DNA of 41,960 nucleotides. Source: Dimargaris cristalligena. Lineage: Eukaryota. The stretch spans positions 1-41,960 of the forward strand of contig ML002323.1 of the NCBI GenBank assembly GCA_003614675.1. Reading direction: 5' to 3'. How positions within the stretch are numbered: the first letter of the stretch is position 1; each line of letters opens with the position of its first letter. The notes under the pieces are model-generated. The model saw only the letters and a program-made list of their open reading frames with translations, did no database searches and had not been told where the DNA came from. A program made the translations under genes and the position numbers. Shown here one piece after another: positions 1-25,022 of the stretch.

Positions 1-54
1 GAGAGCGCTCGCTTAGCATGCGAGAGGCACGGGGATCGATACCCTGGTCCTCCA
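1..54 (+). tRNA. tRNA-Ala (anticodon AGC), 5'-truncated by the window edge
   Basis: Anticodon arm CTCGC-TTAGCAT-GCGAG (AGC at 15-17). T-arm CGGGG-ATCGATA-CCCTG has the ATCG loop typical of eukaryotic tRNA-Ala. Acceptor 3' strand GTCCTCC plus discriminator A, followed by T-runs. Confidence 0.93.
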
Positions 55-72
55 TTCTTTTTATTTTTTTTT
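55..72 (+). terminator. RNA polymerase III oligo-T terminator of the tRNA gene
   Basis: TTCTTTTTATTTTTTTTT immediately 3' of the tRNA. Confidence 0.75.
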
Positions 73-605
73 ATTTTGCCCATAACTCGGATTTGGCCCC
101 TATTTTAGTGTTCTTGATATTTAATAAAAGATTGTGGTTATACATGGTATTTTATTACTCATATTGAACTGTAGGTGGAGAGAAATATAAATATGAAATA
201 TGGCTGTTTTTGTTACAATATCAATTATTTTTACATATAGCATATATTGCAAGTCAGATTAAATATAGATGCTCCCTGGTCACTACCAGTATAACAGGTA
301 TTTGGTTTGTCTAGGCATATTCCCCCCCCCCCATTAATACATAGTACAAAATAGGCATTTTATCTTAATCACTAAGTAATTTGTAATAAAGGGGTGCTGA
401 TGAAAAATAATTCAATGGCAAATTCAAATGTAAAAAGACTCCTTGTAAACAGCTACATAGTTTAGAAAAAAAAATATTCAAGATCAGATAAAATACATTT
501 TCTTTTGAAGAACTACTCACTGCTGACTTTTTTTTTTTGAAGTTCAGTCATGGCCAACAAAAGTGAGACACCAAGCCTTATCATTAAAACAAATAAAAAG
601 GCCAC

Positions 606-1187
606 TGTCAGCCCCCCTAATCCGACTTAATCTGAACCTAACAATTGCCCATCCCTATTAGGCTGTATAGTACCATATTAACCCTCCTATAGTCACCCCT
701 GGTACTATGGGGTTATCAGTTATTATATAACCCCTCTCCTTCTGGCCCTAATACTTTATGCCCAAATACTCAACTTACTAATCCAAGACTCTTCCAGCTC
801 CCATAAGAGTCTTCCTGATGTAAAGTTGTCTAGTTGGATTTTCATCTACATATACCTTAATCTTAGTAGTATTTCCCTTAGGACCTCCCTCTGGAGCTGT
901 CTCTGTGTATATATAACCAGGCCCCATGGGGACTGGTTCAATTCCTTAGCTTATTCATATCCCCCAGTTTACCTCAATAAACTCTATATATACTCACCCC
1001 CCTTATACTAACTAGTAAATGTGCCTGTTGCACATCCCTGGTATTTACCTGCATTTGTCCTTTATTGGTTAGTACTATGCATCTATCCTAACACTAGTAG
1101 CTGCTTAACCGAGTCTGAGCCCCACCTACTGCTAGAAGCCTATCCTTAGGACTCTTGATGAACTAAGAGTGGTTAACCCAGGTGTTA
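606..1187 (+). mobile_element. Solo LTR (copy 1) of an LTR retrotransposon
   Basis: Starts TGTCA and ends TGTTA (decayed TG...CA). Perfect 5-bp target-site duplication GCCAC at 601-605 and 1188-1192. Internal TATATATAA (~908) and AATAAA (~976). Colinear with copies at 38673-39255 and 40935-41513. Confidence 0.9.
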
Positions 1188-1283
1188 GCCACTATTTTAA
1201 TTTAATATATCTACTTGTATACATAACTATTTATAGTAAAAATAATTACATTAGAAAGCCAGAGTAAAGTAGAATACTTTTAT

Positions 1284-2337
1284 TTAATATTGGCTTAGAC
1301 CACCCTTAGCATCAATCACAGCCTGAATTCTACTTGGCATGCTCTCAAAATATAGTGCTGGGTGGGTAGTGTCAATAGCTTTCCATATTGAAGTAATAAT
1401 ATACTTGGCTTTATCCCAGGACCAGTGGCCTGGAAACTTCTTGGCCAGATCTATATTTTTGAACCCAGATGTGCTCAATGAGACTTAAATCAGGACTTTG
1501 AGCAGGCCAATCTAAGACCCCATATTTCTTCTCAGATAGCCATGCTCTCACCATTTTGGTTGTGTGTATTGCTGCATTGTCTTGCTGAAATATCACTGCA
1601 TGGCCTTCCTCAATAAGTTTATTGATCACTGGAGCCATCTGGTCCTTTAATATGTATAAATAGGCACTGCTAACCATTCCTCTTTGCTGGATGGGTGTAG
1701 TGATAGGCCTCTCCCAAAATATAATGTTGGCCTTGCTGAAACTGTGGATTCCCCCCCAGACCATAAGGGATTGGCAGCTAGAACTGAATGTTAGCAGAAG
1801 GTTTTGAGGTGCATATGCCTGACCAGGCCTTTGGAGTACTCTTTAGTTTGCATAGGTACCCCCAATTTGAAATGAACTTTCATCAGAAAAAAAAAAGACA
1901 AATTTCCACTTTTTGATGCTCCAATATTTTCGCTCCTTTGCAAAGTTGAGATTCTTGATCCGGTTAGTGGGTGATATGTATGGCTTCTTTCTTACTACCC
2001 TGGATTCTATATTGGCCTCCTTTAATGCCCTTTGAATTGTCTGCCGTGATATACTCTGACCAGGGAAGACAATGGCCGTAATACCCTGGTTGGTATTAAA
2101 TGGATGGGCTACTGCATATCTGACTAGTTTGTGCTTGGCATAGTTGTTGAGAATCTTGTTACAGCCCCCGCGTTGCTTAGGAGCCTTTGATCCATTATTG
2201 TTACTTGCTTTTATCACCCAGTAAACTGTAGCTCATGAGACACTAAGAATATACATAATCATTGGGACTTGTACATCTTCTTTAAACATATTACAGAGAA
2301 TATCACGCTTCTTAGGGGACAAATGGGTGTATGCCAT
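1284..2337 (-). pseudogene. Tc1 transposase pseudogene
   Basis: ATG at 2337 (MAYTHLSPKKRD...VS*ATVYWVIK, HTH-like), then ISRQTIQRALKE, RKKPYIS, FSDESSF, MVWGGI, FQQDNAAIH and WPAQSPDLSLIEHIW (34 residues between D and E), ending SMPSRIQAVIDAKGG. In-frame stops at 2233-2235 and 1843-1845, and a frameshift near 1465. Confidence 0.93.
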
Positions 2338-2663
2338 AATGAAGAGGAGGCACGAATTAATTAGTTATGGTATAAGACATTTAAAAAGAAAGAAATATGA
2401 ATATGAAAAATTGGGGCTTAATATATGGCACCCCATCACAATAATTTTTTGTCTCACTTTTGCTGGCCATGACTGTACTCCCATATAAGATTCGTTGAAG
2501 GTACTTCCATACTTTAGTGTGGCCAACCTACACTTAATAATTGGACCTGGGACGAGGTGACTACAGCGCAGTGCCATTTTGATACCATTCAAGCCCATCA
2601 AAAACAGCAGACGGACATGTAGATTCCTCTTTGAACTGTATAAATAGATATAGCTTCGCCTCC

Positions 2664-2807
2664 ATATGGGAGAAGTTCATTCAGGCTGTATAATGAAAAA
2701 TCCGTTGGATGAGGCCAATATTACTGGTTAAAAGCTATTCCCACATATGTTTGCCCATCCACATATTATGTAAAGCCTTATACAGTTGGTTTGAATTTCA
2801 TCCATAT
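2664..2807 (+). mobile_element. 144-bp MITE-like dispersed repeat, copy 1
   Basis: Imperfect ~30-bp TIRs (ATATGGGAGAAGTTCA..CTGTATAA / TTATACAG..TGAATTTCATCCATAT). Core AAATCCGTTGGATGAGGC..ACTGGTTAA is shared with two other copies of identical length. Confidence 0.8.
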
Positions 2808-2994
2808 TCAGCCGACATCCACTTCACCCTCTACCACACTTTTACCAATTTCACTGCGGTAAGCCCAACATTACACTGGTTCTTCGCCTCCAACTTCTTC
2901 ACCAGACTATTCTTCTTTATTTCTTAGAAGGGACCCCACCTGTCTGACTTATCTGTCCTTACTTTTATACCCTCCACTGTCTACCCTTAGCAAA

Positions 2995-3726
2995 ATGCGT
3001 CTCTTTGGAACAACTTCCCTACTCATCCTGGGCGCCCTCGCCCTCAGCCATGCCACCGACCAGGATAACCCTGACATCAACCTCAATAATTTCATCAATT
3101 CCAGAAGCCCCGCCATTTCTTATGAGGTTGCCGCTGCGGATCTAATCCAAGGTCCCTTCTTCAGGGAAGCAACATGGCAAGAAACTTCCGAGTATATTGG
3201 GGGACTTAACGGTCATGAGCTAGAACTTTACATTGGTTTACTCGAACACTACATGAACGACGAGAAAGTTAAACGATCCCACCTCAATGAACAGGAAACA
3301 TCCCTTGACTCTATTGCTGGAGGTCACCATGACGATTCGGCGGTGGTCCACCCAGCGCGCTACTAGGCCGAGGCCAGTGGTTCTGGCTCGGGAAGCGGCA
3401 GTCGCCCGGTCCCGGAACCCCAGCCTCTCGCTCCCCAACCATCGCACGGGAACCCCGCCGAAGCGCAAGCATGGTATTGCTATATGCAGCCCATCTATGA
3501 GCAAATGAAGAAGGATTTGAATCATCGAATTGACTGTCCGGTATGTAAAAAAATATTTACTTTCTACACTGCTCGCGATCGTCACCTGCGCATTCACACG
3601 GGTGAAAAACCCTTCACTTGCAATCAGTGTGCTAAAGGATTCGCATGTAAAGATAAACTAAATTCGCATCAATTGAGAGCCAAAGGCTGTGGGCCAGGCG
3701 TAAACTGTCCCCCTTCGGACAATTAA
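2995..3726 (+). pseudogene. Predicted secreted protein with C-terminal tandem C2H2/C2HC zinc fingers; one in-frame TAG at 3364-3366 (pseudogene, null allele, read-through or sequence error)
   Basis: ORFs 2995-3366 and 3484-3726 share a frame and are joined by an open linker (AEASGSGSGSGSRPVPEPQPLAPQPSHGNPAEAQAWYCY). N-terminus MRLFGTTSLLILGALALSHA is signal-peptide-like. C-terminus CPVC-x12-HLRIH-TGEKPF-TCNQC-x12-HQLRAKGC. Confidence 0.8.
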
Positions 3727-4474
3727 CCATGCTAGCCAATATCCCTAGGCTAAACTGGCTGAAATGGGCCTGACCACTTCCCAATATATGTCTTTTATGA
3801 AACGTAGCCACCCCTCCTTTATGATGGGTCTGCTATCTATTTTTTTTTACATTTGTGGTTTATTGGATCAACTTTTCTTTACACTCCATCCCATCAAATA
3901 AATCCTCATTTTGTTTAGACTTATACATCGATTTATGTATAACTGAATTATACATGCTCATATTGGAATTGGTACCGGAGTCTGTTTACCCTAATTGGCA
4001 TAATTGTTTCTCTGGGATATGTCAATCTTGGCCCCTTCGTTTCTAGGCATGTTGACTGTCAGGTTTTTATAGTAACAAATTACCAGCTTGGGGTCAAAAT
4101 AGGCCACTCTTATAAAAAATACAACCGTTAGATTCCTTTTACTCGAACTGTTGGTTATAATTTGATTCCACTCTGAGAGGGGCCCTGGGAAACCCACGGT
4201 CCTTAATGGAGAGAAAATCGGGATGTCTTTGTGGATTAAGGGCCCACTACACTTCCTTTCTGTTATCAGCCTGAGTTCGGGAAATTAAGATCCATTAATA
4301 GCCTTGTTGGTTTGAAGGTCTTACTTGGGCCTGGACGTATTAGATAAGGCCATACTATATTGTAGGATTATATAATAATAAATGAATGGTTCTATGGCAG
4401 CGCTAGTGCTGAGTCTGGTATATTGATGTACCCACCACCCAGCATTAATGGGTCAAATAAAGATTAGGTCATCA

Positions 4475-4618
4475 ATATGGGAAAGGTTCAACCAGACTGT
4501 ATAACGATAAATCCGTTGGATGAGGCAAAAACCACTGGTTAATAATGGATTTCTCATATACTTTCCCATACACGTATTATCCAAAACTTTATACATCTGC
4601 ACTGAATTCCACCCATAT
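4475..4618 (+). mobile_element. 144-bp MITE-like dispersed repeat, copy 2
   Basis: ATATGGGAAAGGTTCAACCAGACTGTATAA...AAATCCGTTGGATGAGGC...TTATACATCTGCACTGAATTCCACCCATAT. Same orientation as copy 1. The right end runs into (AT)10 at 4615-4634. Confidence 0.8.
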
Positions 4619-6033: not shown

Positions 6034-7661
6034 CTATTCAGCTAAAGTGGGAGTAGTAGCGGTAAGAGTCGCCGACATGGGTGAAGGTGACCATGGTACG
6101 GTATGATGGCTCGGCTCGACCAACCCACCCCTTTCCTCCATCGTCAACAGCGGGGTCGGTGCCGGTGTGACCAGCGCCTTCACCCTCTCCCCAGACCCCC
6201 GCTGACCGAGACGTAGAATCGGACGCGCCGAGGCCAATTCGGAAATAAGGGGTGTGGTCGGCGGCTGCTGATCCAGGACCCCCGGTGGCCGGGGGATGGG
6301 CCCCGATCCGTCCCGGTCCACCCCTTCAGCCACCGAGTCCGATTTTAGAGCCACAGTATCCGCTGACTGTCCTGACGACGGCTCCTGCCGCCAAGTCGAT
6401 CGGAACGACGGGGAGTAAGGGGTAGCGTAATTAGGGTACAGCGAATTCGCCGTATGGGCGGACGTAAGCCGGGCGGGGGTTAAAAAGGATGATGTAGCGT
6501 GAAATGAATTAGGAACAGGCGTAGCAGTAGTCGGAGTCGTTGTTGATAGGGCGGTAGTGGGAGTCATGGGTTCCTGACAATACCGATCTCCACTCAATAA
6601 TGAGGTGAGTTCACCCCCCCTGGAAAGACTATGCCTACTAGAACCACTATTGCGGTGCTGGTGCCCGTAGAGGTCCAAAAGAGTGGGCCGCTTCCCCACC
6701 AATACCGTCTGCAACGAATTACTGCTGCCACTGCTACTACTATTACTACTACTGCTGCTGATATGACTCTGGCCATTATCATGGGAAGATGCGGATACTA
6801 CGTCGGATTGCTGGAATAGCAGCATGGCCTCGGCCGCATTGACCATGGTCGATGGAGCGGGATAATGCGGGTGATTCGAGCCAAGGGTGGTCGAAGCGCA
6901 CCGCTTAAGCCGGGGAGGTTGGGGATCGGTGGCCGATTGTGAAACGGCGGTGAAATTCGGAGGATAACTGAAATACCGGGTTGACAGGCGCTTGGTCGGG
7001 GTTTTAAAGTCCGACCCCGCTGCGGAAGACGATGACGACGACGAGGAGGAGGAGGAAGAGGTAGTGATGGTGGAAGGTAGATGTAGGTTACGGGACGACG
7101 AATGGATATGAATACCGGGCTGTGCACCCGTCATCTCCGGGTAAGTCAAACCCGAACCGGAATCTAGGGATACTAATGATGAAGATGATGAGGACAATGT
7201 CGAAGATTGTAGAGATGTGAAGGGCGGTGGTGGTTGAATAGCCGAACCCTTCCAAACCGACCTGCCTTCGGGAATGCCACACGCCTCCAGATGAGCGGTA
7301 TTTAACCGCTGGCCCACCTCGGGCACGGTGTGGAATGAGATACCCGGAATGGCCTGTTCCAACGAAAGTCGAAGGCGTTTCCGGGGGGTCAGCGATCCAT
7401 CACCGGGCACATGGGCGGAATCGCCTATCGATTCCCGGGAGGTCGACGGGGACACTGATGGATCAGCGCCGATATCCGTAGCTCCAGTATCGTTTTTTTG
7501 AATGAAGAGACGGTGGATCTTAGTGCGTTCGGTTTCGGGGAGCCGGGCGTAAAGGGCGGTGACTTGTTCGAAGGACTTGTCTTGCCAGCCATAATCAACC
7601 TTGAATTTGGCAAAGGAGAGGGTGGCGTGGAGAGTATCGGCAATCTAAATGGCGTTGACAT
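6034..7661 (-). CDS. Uncharacterised Ser/Thr/Pro-rich, probably disordered nuclear protein (~542 aa if the -1 shift at 7493-7499 is corrected)
   Basis: Long open frame 6034-~7640 with no ATG until 7134. The overlapping frame from ATG 7661 (MSTPFRLP...TVSSFKK) has the same S/P-rich composition and joins it across an A7 run. Basic clusters TPRKRLRL, TPTKR and RLKR, poly-Ser tracts, short helix NAAEAMLLF. Confidence 0.7.
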
Positions 7662-13363: not shown

Positions 13364-15010
13364 TTAAAAGCCGTCCATCATAAAGATGCCGGTGGGCGGG
13401 GAGCAGGCCGAGGTGGAGTGCAAAGACAGTGCGCTCAACTTGGCGGACAGATAGGCCGAGTGGGCGGAATTGGCGCCACCCTTGGCCAATTTATTTTGGG
13501 AAGGCATGGAAATAGGCAACTGCTTCTGGTTGATGGGCATGGCCGAGGCGGCGGTGGAGCTGAGAAAGGCGTCATCGAAGGAGAGGTCTTCGAGTTCGTC
13601 GTCATCGTCATCAGCCCAGCTGCAGTAGCGAGCGTAAGAGCTGGAGACGAAGGTCGGGGAAGCGGTGGCGGTCGAAGTGGTGCTAGTTGGGGCAGCCACG
13701 GGAATGGGACGGGTGATGGCCGAAGGGGCAGCGACGTGGGAGACGCTGGGAAGGGTGGGTGAAAAGAGAGTAGAGGTGGATGAACCGATGGAAAAGGACA
13801 GGGGCTCGTCGTCATTTTCATCGTCCTCGTCGGCCCAGTTGAAGGGCATGGTGAAGCGAACAGCCATGGAGGGGACCAGAAGGTGTGAGGGACGGGACGG
13901 CGAGGCAGCCGCCTGTTGGATGGGGATGGCCTGGGGAGCGGGGGTGGAAAACAAGTCAAAGTCGTTAGAAGACTCCGCCGTCTCTTCCTCCTCTGACAGG
14001 TACCAGTCGTCCTCGCTGAGGGGGGTCGAGTCGAAAGAAGGGCGGTAGGGAAGCGGGGCCACTTCCACGGCCGAGGGGGCGGTGAAACTAGAAAGGTAAA
14101 TATTATCGAGGGAGGAGGTCCACTCGGCAAACTCAGATACAGAACAACGAACCATTTCGTGGCAGAACACACGGCGGTGCAGGAAAGAGGCCACTTCTTC
14201 GGGGCAGTTTACGCGGTCGACGAGAAAACGAACTCCGTCACGGACGAAGGCGGCGAAAGACTGAGAGCTAGCCACATCGGGCTCGGACCAGGGGGTAACA
14301 CCGTAAAACACGTTGAGAAAAATAATACCGAGGGCCCAGATATCCGACTTACTGGACGAATAAAAGGTACGTTGGGTACTACGGTTCTCCCGGCTCATGT
14401 AGGGGCGACTACCGCATTCAAATTCATCGGAGCGGTCGCATTCGGTGGCCAGACCAAAGTCGGTTAGCTTAATGCGGTAGTGCTGGCGGGTGATGATGAT
14501 GTTTTCGGGCTTAATGTCACGGTGGTAGACACCTTGGGCGTGGACGTGGGCCACGGCATCAAGCACCTGCTGGAAAATGGACTTGTAGAGGGTAAAACGC
14601 TTCACCTGGTTAGCCCGTGTGTCCTTAGTGGGGTGGACACGGTTCAGGGAGTCGGACGTAATCCACTCATACAGATCTTGCCCATCGGCAAACTCCATAA
14701 CCAGGAAGCGCCAGTCGGCGGTCTCGAAGGCACGGTCAATGGCCACCACGGATTTGTGGTTGCTGACGCGCTGGTGGAGACGAAGCTCCAGGCGCTGCAT
14801 TTCTAGCTGGTCTTCATCAAGGGAAATTTTAGATAGGCATTTAATCGCCTGGACAGCCCGGGTTCGGTTGTTCTGTGCCAGGTACACCACGGCGTACGAG
14901 CCGCTACCAATGACGGACTTGAGGGTGTAACTTACGTTTCCACTTGGGTCGGCAATGATGCTACCAACCTTGAAGGGGATTTCGGAAGAAGAGCCAGCAG
15001 AGAAAGACAT
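13364..15010 (-). CDS. Ser/Thr protein kinase, fungal Ran1/Pat1-Ksp1/Sks1-like family, 548 aa, intronless
   Basis: ATG at 15010 in ACC-ATG context. Motifs GSGSYA, AIKCL, HRDIKPEN, KLTDFGLAT, CGSRPYMSRE (Ran1-family activation segment CGSxxYMSxE) and DIWALG. Acidic, low-complexity C-terminal tail. Confidence 0.92.
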   Translation of the reverse strand: MSFSAGSSSEIPFKVGSIIADPSGNVSYTLKSVIGSGSYAVVYLAQNNRTRAVQAIKCLSKISLDEDQLEMQRLELRLHQRVSNHKSVVAIDRAFETADWRFLVMEFADGQDLYEWITSDSLNRVHPTKDTRANQVKRFTLYKSIFQQVLDAVAHVHAQGVYHRDIKPENIIITRQHYRIKLTDFGLATECDRSDEFECGSRPYMSRENRSTQRTFYSSSKSDIWALGIIFLNVFYGVTPWSEPDVASSQSFAAFVRDGVRFLVDRVNCPEEVASFLHRRVFCHEMVRCSVSEFAEWTSSLDNIYLSSFTAPSAVEVAPLPYRPSFDSTPLSEDDWYLSEEEETAESSNDFDLFSTPAPQAIPIQQAAASPSRPSHLLVPSMAVRFTMPFNWADEDDENDDEPLSFSIGSSTSTLFSPTLPSVSHVAAPSAITRPIPVAAPTSTTSTATASPTFVSSSYARYCSWADDDDDELEDLSFDDAFLSSTAASAMPINQKQLPISMPSQNKLAKGGANSAHSAYLSAKLSALSLHSTSACSPPTGIFMMDGF

Positions 15011-15464
15011 GGTGAAGAAATAAAGCGGTATGAGGGGGGGGGGTGCAAAGGGGAGGGGAGGGGTAAAAAAATGAAGAGTACAATACACACTAACGCGGAA
15101 CAGTGGCCACGAACGGACAGCAAAGCGTGAGGGGCGCGCGACAACTAAACTATGTGAGAGCGTAGGAGTCGGGCGCGAAATAACAATAGTTAAAGAAAAT
15201 GGAGACTGAATAGAATAGGAATAAACTTAGAAAATGGTGGAGCGACGAACGAGGAGTTTCGGGGGATTATTAAGGGGGGAGGGGATAATAAACTCAGTAG
15301 TAAAGTGGGAGTGGAGAGGTGGTGGGTCAGTAGTAGGGGGTCAATATATACTGAGTATTATACAACGAAACTCAACAGGTGGGAAAGGTCACTCTTTGGA
15401 AAGAAGGTATCAAAAGGGGTAAGGTGGGAGATGTTTTACAAGACGAAGAAGGATTAAAGTGTTA

Positions 15465-24878: not shown

Positions 24879-25022
24879 ATATGGGTGAAATTCGGCCCAG
24901 CTGTATAAAGTTTTAAATGATAACTGTATGGGATAATGTATGGGAGATTTATTTTTAACCAGTAATATTTGCTTCATCCAACGGATTTTTCGTTATACAG
25001 CTCGGTTGAACCTCTCTCATAT
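24879..25022 (-). mobile_element. 144-bp MITE-like dispersed repeat, copy 3 (inverted)
   Basis: Reverse complement reads ATATGAGAGAGGTTCAACCGAGCTGTATAACGAAAAATCCGTTGGATGAAGCAAATATTACTGGTTAA...TTATACAGCTGGGCCGAATTTCACCCATAT. Abuts an (AT)n run. Confidence 0.8.

Follow-up and report, generated by a model that had tools for sequence, protein, structure and literature searches.

The 41,960-nucleotide (nt) stretch of Dimargaris cristalligena contig ML002323.1 (assembly GCA_003614675.1), hereafter the window, carries at 2995-3726 on the plus strand a frame that raises a specific question: how does a hydrophobic, signal-peptide-like N-terminus come to share one frame with a pair of C2H2 zinc fingers, and what is made of that combination when an in-frame TAG lies between the two parts? 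A preliminary description had seen here a candidate secreted effector with a transcription-factor-type end. The reading developed below, to which we assign an overall probability of about 0.62, takes together the anatomy of a small protein family, the homology of the two halves, the stop codon of the window copy and a secretory N-terminus in the intact paralogs. According to it, the locus would be one paralog of a lineage-restricted family in a haustorial parasite of fungi. The ancestral single-exon gene would have encoded a cleavable signal of ~20 amino acids (aa) and, behind it, a Cys-free acidic domain of ~100 aa; a Gly-Ser linker and a spacer rich in Pro would have led on to a pair of classical C2H2 fingers, joined by TGEKP and followed by a conserved N-C-P-P tail. 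A point nonsense mutation would have cut this frame between the acidic domain and the linker, so that the window gene would now yield only a secreted acidic protein, with the finger part persisting as a recently orphaned, still open remnant.

The interrupted frame and its relatives

The frame begins at ATG 2995, extends for 123 codons to a TAG at 3364-3366 and continues through another 119 open codons to a TAA at 3724-3726, amounting to 243 codons plus the terminal stop when the TAG is counted; its first 123 residues are the protein model on record for the window. Every element previously listed for the read-through frame, namely the hydrophobic N-terminus, the K-R pair, the linker and the TGEKP-joined fingers, is recovered on re-reading the sequence. 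ATG 2995 is the first ATG of the open frame and stands in a good context with A at -3 (gcaaaATGc), whereas ATG 3484, further downstream in the same frame, has T at -3 and a weak context. The segment behind the TAG contains a GSGSGSGS run followed by a Pro/Gln-rich spacer. Its 119-codon open frame is more than chance: 3367-3723 is free of in-frame stops in only 98 of 20000 mononucleotide shuffles, only 25 of the 4207 stop-to-stop intervals in the six frames of the window reach at least 119 codons, and the remaining two frames across the stretch carry 5 and 7 stops.

Homology searches join the two parts. A word-indexed search with residues 1-123 retained two proteins among 57 candidates, both hypothetical proteins of D. 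cristalligena: P0001 (190 aa, 79% identity, E 3.6e-56) and P0002 (229 aa, 58% identity, E 8.1e-31). An exhaustive phmmer search with the same residues against 1.84 billion representatives gave five matches at E<=1e-3, two of which, bacterial repeat proteins matched through many short stretches, were set aside as spurious. The true clusters number three, comprising the query itself, P0004 (156 aa, 52% identity, E 7.9e-28, no fingers) and P0007 (1491 aa, matched across its N-terminal 111 residues, E 2.9e-4 against the whole library), and with so few among 1.84 billion representatives the family appears tiny and lineage-restricted. A profile built from four members returned five matches among 7797 candidates, all of the family, and added P0010 (240 aa). 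Aligned to the window, residues 1-228 of P0002 form a single tblastn match that crosses the TAG (2995-3720, E 2.5e-69), and residues 1-239 of P0010 likewise form one match across it (E 1.4e-58). Each of these proteins presents, in an intact open reading frame (ORF), a signal-like N-terminus, an acidic domain, a Gly-Ser linker, a spacer, two fingers and an N-C-P-P tail. Because P0002 and P0010 carry both halves intact, each in one alignment across the TAG, both halves of the window copy are, judged from these alignments, one ancestral gene; the colinear halves stand in one uninterrupted ORF in these two paralogs and not in the window copy, which is thereby a truncated member. The preliminary description had envisaged an intact family combining a signal-like N-terminus with fingers, and P0002 and P0010, both from D. 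cristalligena, are such proteins; the opposite outcome, in which homologues of the two halves never share an ORF, is not what the searches returned. A tblastn search of the whole window with the family proteins found no second member elsewhere in it.

The TAG is genuine and present in the DNA of the window copy. Of the five DNA runs containing the stretch, which come from two studies, four were compared, and their assembled contigs show no other letter at this codon; the contigs spanning the stop cover 3025-3511 in X2, X3 and X5 and 2711-4100 in X1. These contigs list no variant inside the gene, with the caveat that assembled contigs drop rare variants and alleles. An assembly error was rejected on the agreement of all four runs. 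An intron removing the TAG was also rejected, since P0001 continues through this column, where it has an Arg, and the alignments of P0002 and P0010 run over uninterrupted DNA; scanning by eye revealed no plausible GT...AG pair of fungal intron length near the TAG. In front of the stop, 64/111 positions are identical to P0002 and 57/118 to P0010; behind it the counts are 61/118 and 54/119, and all eight zinc ligands are retained downstream. Because similarity behind the stop is about that in front of it, with every ligand kept and 119 codons open, the stop mutation is recent or the post-stop remnant is still constrained. With a TAG that is real in the DNA, the window copy can yield, short of read-through at the stop, no more than the 123-aa signal-plus-acidic part, and we read it as a recently truncated paralog with this protein as its sole product as written. 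The fusion protein formerly attributed to the window copy is thus set aside on the TAG seen in the contigs of all four runs.

Two side observations concern the same region. Contig depth rises about two-fold at 2957-3058 and 3467-3517, with breaks at 3025/3054 and 3498/3511 in three runs; both the signal-peptide segment and the MQPIYEQMKKDLNHR segment would share k-mers with paralogs, which fits these rises and breaks. Furthermore, GTATGT, a consensus fungal 5' splice site, lies at 3541-3546 inside finger 1 (C-P-V-C), and the annotated P0001 model departs from the family alignment exactly after D-C-P; the gene predictor may have spliced P0001 at this hexamer and thereby hidden intact fingers. 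The features of the locus and its flanks are collected in Table 1.

Table 1. Elements of the zinc-finger locus and of the neighbouring repeats in window coordinates
Feature	Position	Strand	Remarks
Tc1/mariner-type transposase remnant, frameshifted	1284-2232	-	spread over three frames; DDE_3 E 1.3e-7 on 1411-1764
147-nt repeat resembling a miniature inverted-repeat transposable element (MITE), very high copy	2661-2807		188 nt upstream of ATG; copy level from contig depth
Signal-peptide-like N-terminus, residues 1-20	2995-3054	+	M-R, apolar run LFGTTSLLILGALALS, S-H-A before T-D
Acidic Cys-free N-domain, residues 21-123	3055-3363	+	family-specific; homologous to the N-terminus of P0001, P0002, P0004 and P0007
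K-R pair, proposed Kex2 site	3271-3276	+	present in window, not conserved
In-frame TAG, nonsense codon	3364-3366	+	at this column R in P0001 and P0004, G in P0010, F in P0007, gap in P0002
Gly-Ser linker, Pro-rich spacer and pre-finger segment QAW...PIY...L...D	3367-3534	+	includes ATG 3484; pre-finger segment conserved
Finger 1, C-x2-C-x12-H-x3-H	3535-3597	+	helix contacts -1,+2,+3,+6 = F,T,A,R
TGEKP inter-finger linker	3598-3612	+	zf-H2C2_2 E 3.8e-10
Finger 2, C-x2-C-x12-H-x6-C	3619-3690	+	helix contacts -1,+2,+3,+6 = C,D,K,S
Family-specific tail N-C-P-P-x-x-x, then TAA	3703-3726	+	N80, C81, P82 and P83 invariant in the three-sequence finger alignment
Second copy of the 147-nt repeat, downstream of the gene	4472-4618		75-76% identity

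Fingers, acidic domain and N-terminus of the family

The 80-aa part starting at ATG 3484 matches the finger families of Pfam, scoring 40.0 bits with zf-H2C2_2 (cut-off 40; E-value in Table 1), 30.4 bits with zf-C2H2_4 (cut-off 27) and 25.1 bits with zf-C2H2, just under the cut-off of 25.2; in the intact paralogs the last family reaches 39.2 bits (P0002) and 29.9 bits (P0010). The features of the classical C2H2 class (PF00096 / PF13465 / PF13894) are present and finger 1 is canonical. Finger 2 departs from the H-x3-5-H ending, with H-x6-C in the window copy and P0002 and H-x6-H (Cys at x6) in P0010, so that the earlier picture of two TGEKP-joined fingers holds for the linker and finger 1 and gives way at the end of finger 2. 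Compared with structures in the PDB, the finger profile matches chains of ZNF568, Zif268/EGR1, KLF4, WT1 and CTCF, the two-finger match to Zif268 reaching about E 1e-20. The family shares with Zif268/EGR1, KLF4 and WT1 the C-x2-C-x12-H-x3-H spacing, the TGEKP linker and, in the intact paralogs, Arg at -1/+6, and differs from them in its secretion-type N-terminus, in an Arg at the normally hydrophobic +4 position of finger 1 and in a finger 2 that ends H-x6-C/H before the conserved N-C-P-P tail.

The helix contacts distinguish the intact paralogs from the window copy. P0002 and P0010 carry Arg at all four -1/+6 helix positions and Asp at +2 of finger 2. Under the C2H2 recognition rules, Arg at -1/+6 combined with Asp at +2 leads to G-rich triplets, and the residue pattern of the intact paralogs points to fingers that are predicted to read such triplets. 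In the window copy three of the four Arg contacts are lost, with F and C at the -1 positions and S at +6 of finger 2. The origin of the finger module was sought through its profile, which gave 124 matches among longer proteins, mostly animal poly-finger proteins scoring through their repeats. Among the 120 matches listed, 99% coverage of the query together with family-specific flanks is confined to P0002 and P0010; one poly-finger protein from a frog has the same coverage at 35% identity, and no donor transcription factor can be named.

The acidic N-domain (residues 21-126) has a pI of 4.5, with 19 D+E against 6 K+R, lacks Cys and is rich in aromatic and aliphatic residues; the acidity noted earlier is confirmed, and the length is about 100 aa instead of the ~70 aa first given. 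No Pfam family is matched above cut-off (ACC_central E 0.0018, KASH E 0.092), P0001 and P0004 match zero families, no PDB match falls below E 0.5, and the ESM Atlas returned no usable match. An AlphaFold2 model of P0002 from a 4-row alignment was unusable, with a mean predicted local distance difference test (pLDDT) score of 37.4 and a predicted template modelling (pTM) score of 0.26. Set before a linker and a DNA-binding domain, the acidic domain would give the mature protein a minimal-activator layout. The same domain also occurs in other company: P0007 and P0009, annotated as 'transmembrane protein' and matching AI-2E_transport (PF01594, E 2.3e-11), share the signal-like N-terminus, the N-domain and the Ser/Gly linker with the window gene (tblastn E 2.4e-13), whereas a polytopic membrane protein of ~1350 aa follows in place of the fingers. 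This arrangement appears in two independent annotations of 1491-1554 aa and reflects either module shuffling or repeated gene-model fusion. Since the N-domain is present alone in P0004 and on a membrane protein in P0007, its distribution argues for a separate function of the domain, secretory or extracellular.

At the N-terminus, the first 20 residues of the window copy read MRLFGTTSLLILGALALSHA and are followed by T-D. The 9-residue Kyte-Doolittle maximum is 2.97, within a family range of 2.3-3.0, and in all six architectures (6/6) a single Arg precedes 13-19 apolar residues, the -3 and -1 positions are small and the continuation is polar and acidic, the residues before the putative cleavage point being S-H-A, S-H-G or S-W-A across the family. 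A crude signal rule, written after the family had been seen, is passed by 8/8 family entries and by 0/116 non-family C2H2 proteins with an initial Met, out of the 118 proteins kept from the finger-profile listing. The statement that C2H2 fingers normally lack secretion signals stands as a rule, with MoHTR1-3 of Magnaporthe oryzae as a published exception. In P0007 and P0009 this module stands in front of a polytopic membrane protein, a placement that would be expected if it targets the endoplasmic reticulum. In the intact paralogs the N-terminal segment probably directs secretory entry, with cleavage behind S-H-A, as far as residue patterns can tell. The proposed Kex2-cleavable pro-region is not indicated, because the K-R pair is not conserved: the corresponding columns of five relatives read E-R, S-Q, K-Q, R-Q and G-Y, with no dibasic pair in any of them (0/5) and none conserved in the linker of the family alignment.

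All named members are filed under D. cristalligena (Dimargaritales, Kickxellomycotina), one 156-aa member also being filed under Syncephalis pseudoplumigaleata. This member, represented by P0008, a cluster mate of P0004, appears under two accessions and in two Zoopagomycota taxa. S. pseudoplumigaleata belongs to a different subphylum, but its genome and that of D. cristalligena stem from one single-cell sequencing study; assembly cross-contamination is a possible source of the double filing, and a shared gene is the alternative.

A possible host-directed role and its alternatives

The host-directed part of the proposal draws on known systems. According to the published accounts, MoHTR1, MoHTR2 and MoHTR3 are secreted C2H2 zinc-finger nuclear effectors (PMC7672089, PMC10189765), and MoHTR1 and MoHTR2 of M. 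oryzae were observed in rice nuclei and have mapped binding elements (PMC7672089). PMC9866270 describes Dimargaritales as parasites of other fungi that use an appressorium and a haustorium, which bears out the parasitic source suspected from the DNA. MoHTR1-3, as there described, and the Dimargaris family are alike in being shorter than 300 aa, with an N-terminal secretion signal (here predicted) and C-terminal C2H2 finger(s), and in being lineage-specific and derived from a biotrophic, host-invading fungus. Host-nuclear entry and DNA binding are reported as demonstrated for the MoHTRs, whereas the Dimargaris family is known from sequence alone. Structurally, the MoHTRs are described with a single C2H2 domain, flanking basic residues and a nuclear localisation signal (NLS) (PMC7672089, PMC10189765), in contrast to the two TGEKP-linked fingers (the second C2HC-like), the 100-aa acidic domain, the Gly-Ser linker and the missing separate NLS of the Dimargaris family. 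The setting differs as well, the host being a fungus instead of a plant and the parasite an early-diverging member of Kickxellomycotina instead of an ascomycete. No M. oryzae protein occurs among the five profile matches or among the 120 listed finger-profile matches, and the likeness drawn here is one of architecture.

By analogy with these effectors, the mature proteins of the intact paralogs, of ~23 kDa after cleavage behind S-H-A and joining an acidic, aromatic-rich domain to a basic two-finger module, might be delivered from the haustorium into the fungal host and bind G-rich DNA sites in the host nucleus. We regard this step as tentative and clearly short of even odds. Slightly more doubtful still is the wider proposal that D. 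cristalligena secretes a private two-finger C2H2 family through haustoria into Mucorales hosts and re-programmes their transcription, the acidic N-module being a new delivery or activation domain shuffled onto cargoes (fingers, a membrane transporter or nothing) and the window copy a member lost or neo-functionalised recently while the family turns over. With MoHTR1-3, nuclear effectors that are secreted and carry C2H2 fingers are on record, and the principle itself is not new. Literature searches turned up no secreted zinc-finger protein described from Dimargaris or any other mycoparasite; of the two Dimargaris genome papers, PMC9866270 lacks the term 'zinc finger' and PMC6784888 lacks 'zinc', 'secreted' and 'effector', both counts covering the article text. 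Taken as a whole, the secreted-effector idea of the preliminary description keeps the family architecture in a parasitic fungus and loses the intact fusion at this locus and the Kex2 site.

Several observations weigh against the favoured account. The signal was recognised by a post hoc sequence rule, which makes the predicted secretion correspondingly provisional. No stand-alone NLS occurs in the family sequences, where basic clusters lie only inside the fingers. Finger domains can serve as NLS themselves. An N-domain that stands alone or on a membrane protein is no pointer to a nuclear role for that domain, and finger-less forms exist (the 156-aa P0004 and the 123-aa window model), so that the fingers may be dispensable. 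The intact finger-bearing members come from only one annotated assembly, with one member sequence each. Finally, the loss of Arg contacts in the window copy fits decay and would equally fit diversification of a live gene.

Among the alternatives, the family may be secreted while its fingers act elsewhere than on host nuclear DNA, in zinc scavenging or in binding RNA, extracellular DNA or protein, or the N-domain may be the working part and the fingers an accessory. This is unlikely, yet it has substance: the N-module occurs without fingers in P0004 and on the AI-2E-type membrane protein in P0007 and P0009, the family sequences lack a separate NLS, finger 2 has an unusual H-x6-C/H ligand spacing, and P0010 weakly matches zf-C2H2_jaz, a double-stranded-RNA-binding finger (E 3.8e-4, below cut-off). 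On the other side stand the classical tandem TGEKP type, which matches the DNA-bound Zif268, KLF4 and WT1 chains, the four Arg at -1/+6 in the intact paralogs, and the precedent of secreted C2H2 proteins acting in host nuclei that is described in PMC7672089. A still less probable explanation holds that the hydrophobic N-terminus is not a cleaved signal and that the family consists of the parasite's own nuclear or membrane-tethered transcription factors; secretion of the family is read from sequence, and removal of 20 residues leaves a minimal-activator layout. An apolar run of 13-19 residues with small -3/-1 residues nevertheless has the form of a cleaved signal and not of an anchor of 20 or more residues. 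The segment moreover begins with the open frame's first ATG, in good context, is kept by every member, also by the one in which it precedes a polytopic membrane protein, and has no counterpart in the 116 other C2H2 matches.

The remaining alternatives concern the window copy. A split gene, producing the 123-aa secreted protein and, from ATG 3484, a separate 80-aa two-finger protein, would explain why the downstream frame is open with all ligands intact, and P0001 also has Met at that column. We consider it very improbable, given the T at -3 of ATG 3484 against the A at -3 of ATG 2995, the missing Met at this column in P0002 and P0010, the loss of three of the four Arg contacts, and the rarity in eukaryotes of reinitiation after an ORF of 123 codons. 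Hardly credible is the proposal that the full-length fusion is still made from the window copy through stop read-through, RNA editing or an intact allele dropped by the contigs. The post-stop frame is indeed as well conserved as the pre-stop frame, and rare variants would be dropped from assembled contigs; no variant at the TAG appears, however, in the contigs of 4/4 runs, and to our knowledge TAG-GCC is not among the known read-through contexts.

Genomic setting and biological meaning

The gene lies in a flank rich in mobile elements, as the preliminary description had noted, with a Tc1/mariner remnant and copies of a 147-nt repeat around it (Table 1). Besides the copies at 2661-2807 and 4472-4618, which flank the gene 1811 nt apart, the repeat occurs at 24879-25022 on the minus strand. 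Summed contig depth on 2661-2807 is about 2e5-6e5, compared with ~8 in X1 and ~200-800 in the other three runs over the gene, so that in the three deeper runs the repeat exceeds its neighbouring gene by a factor of hundreds to thousands, and in X1 by still more. Its imperfect terminal inverted repeats and AT-rich ends are the basis for calling it MITE-like, and a very abundant MITE is its probable identity. Over 1-3000 the GC content is 0.36-0.40, compared with about 0.45-0.58 over most of 6001-37000. Further along, a 536-codon Ser/Thr/Pro-rich open frame at 6034-7644 on the minus strand has a weak Whi5-motif match (E 0.0018, below cut-off), and a 620-codon open frame at 13364-15226, also on the minus strand, encodes a protein kinase domain (Pkinase E 3.3e-46) and represents a housekeeping-type neighbour in the GC-richer core.

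For the biology of the family, the outcome depends on secretion. Effectors of mycoparasites from early-diverging fungi are almost unstudied. If its members are not secreted, they would amount to a few unusual transcription factors, one of them a pseudogene. Should the intact paralogs be both secreted and host-nuclear, the MoHTR principle of a pathogen transcription factor working inside its host would extend from plant to fungal hosts, and the family would provide a compact test case, with two genes intact, one copy truncated and one lacking the fingers, in a fungus that is culturable both with and without its host. Under the wider proposal of secretion into Mucorales hosts, these proteins would set two precedents, as a transcription-factor-like effector acting between a parasitic and a host fungus and as one from an early-diverging fungal lineage.

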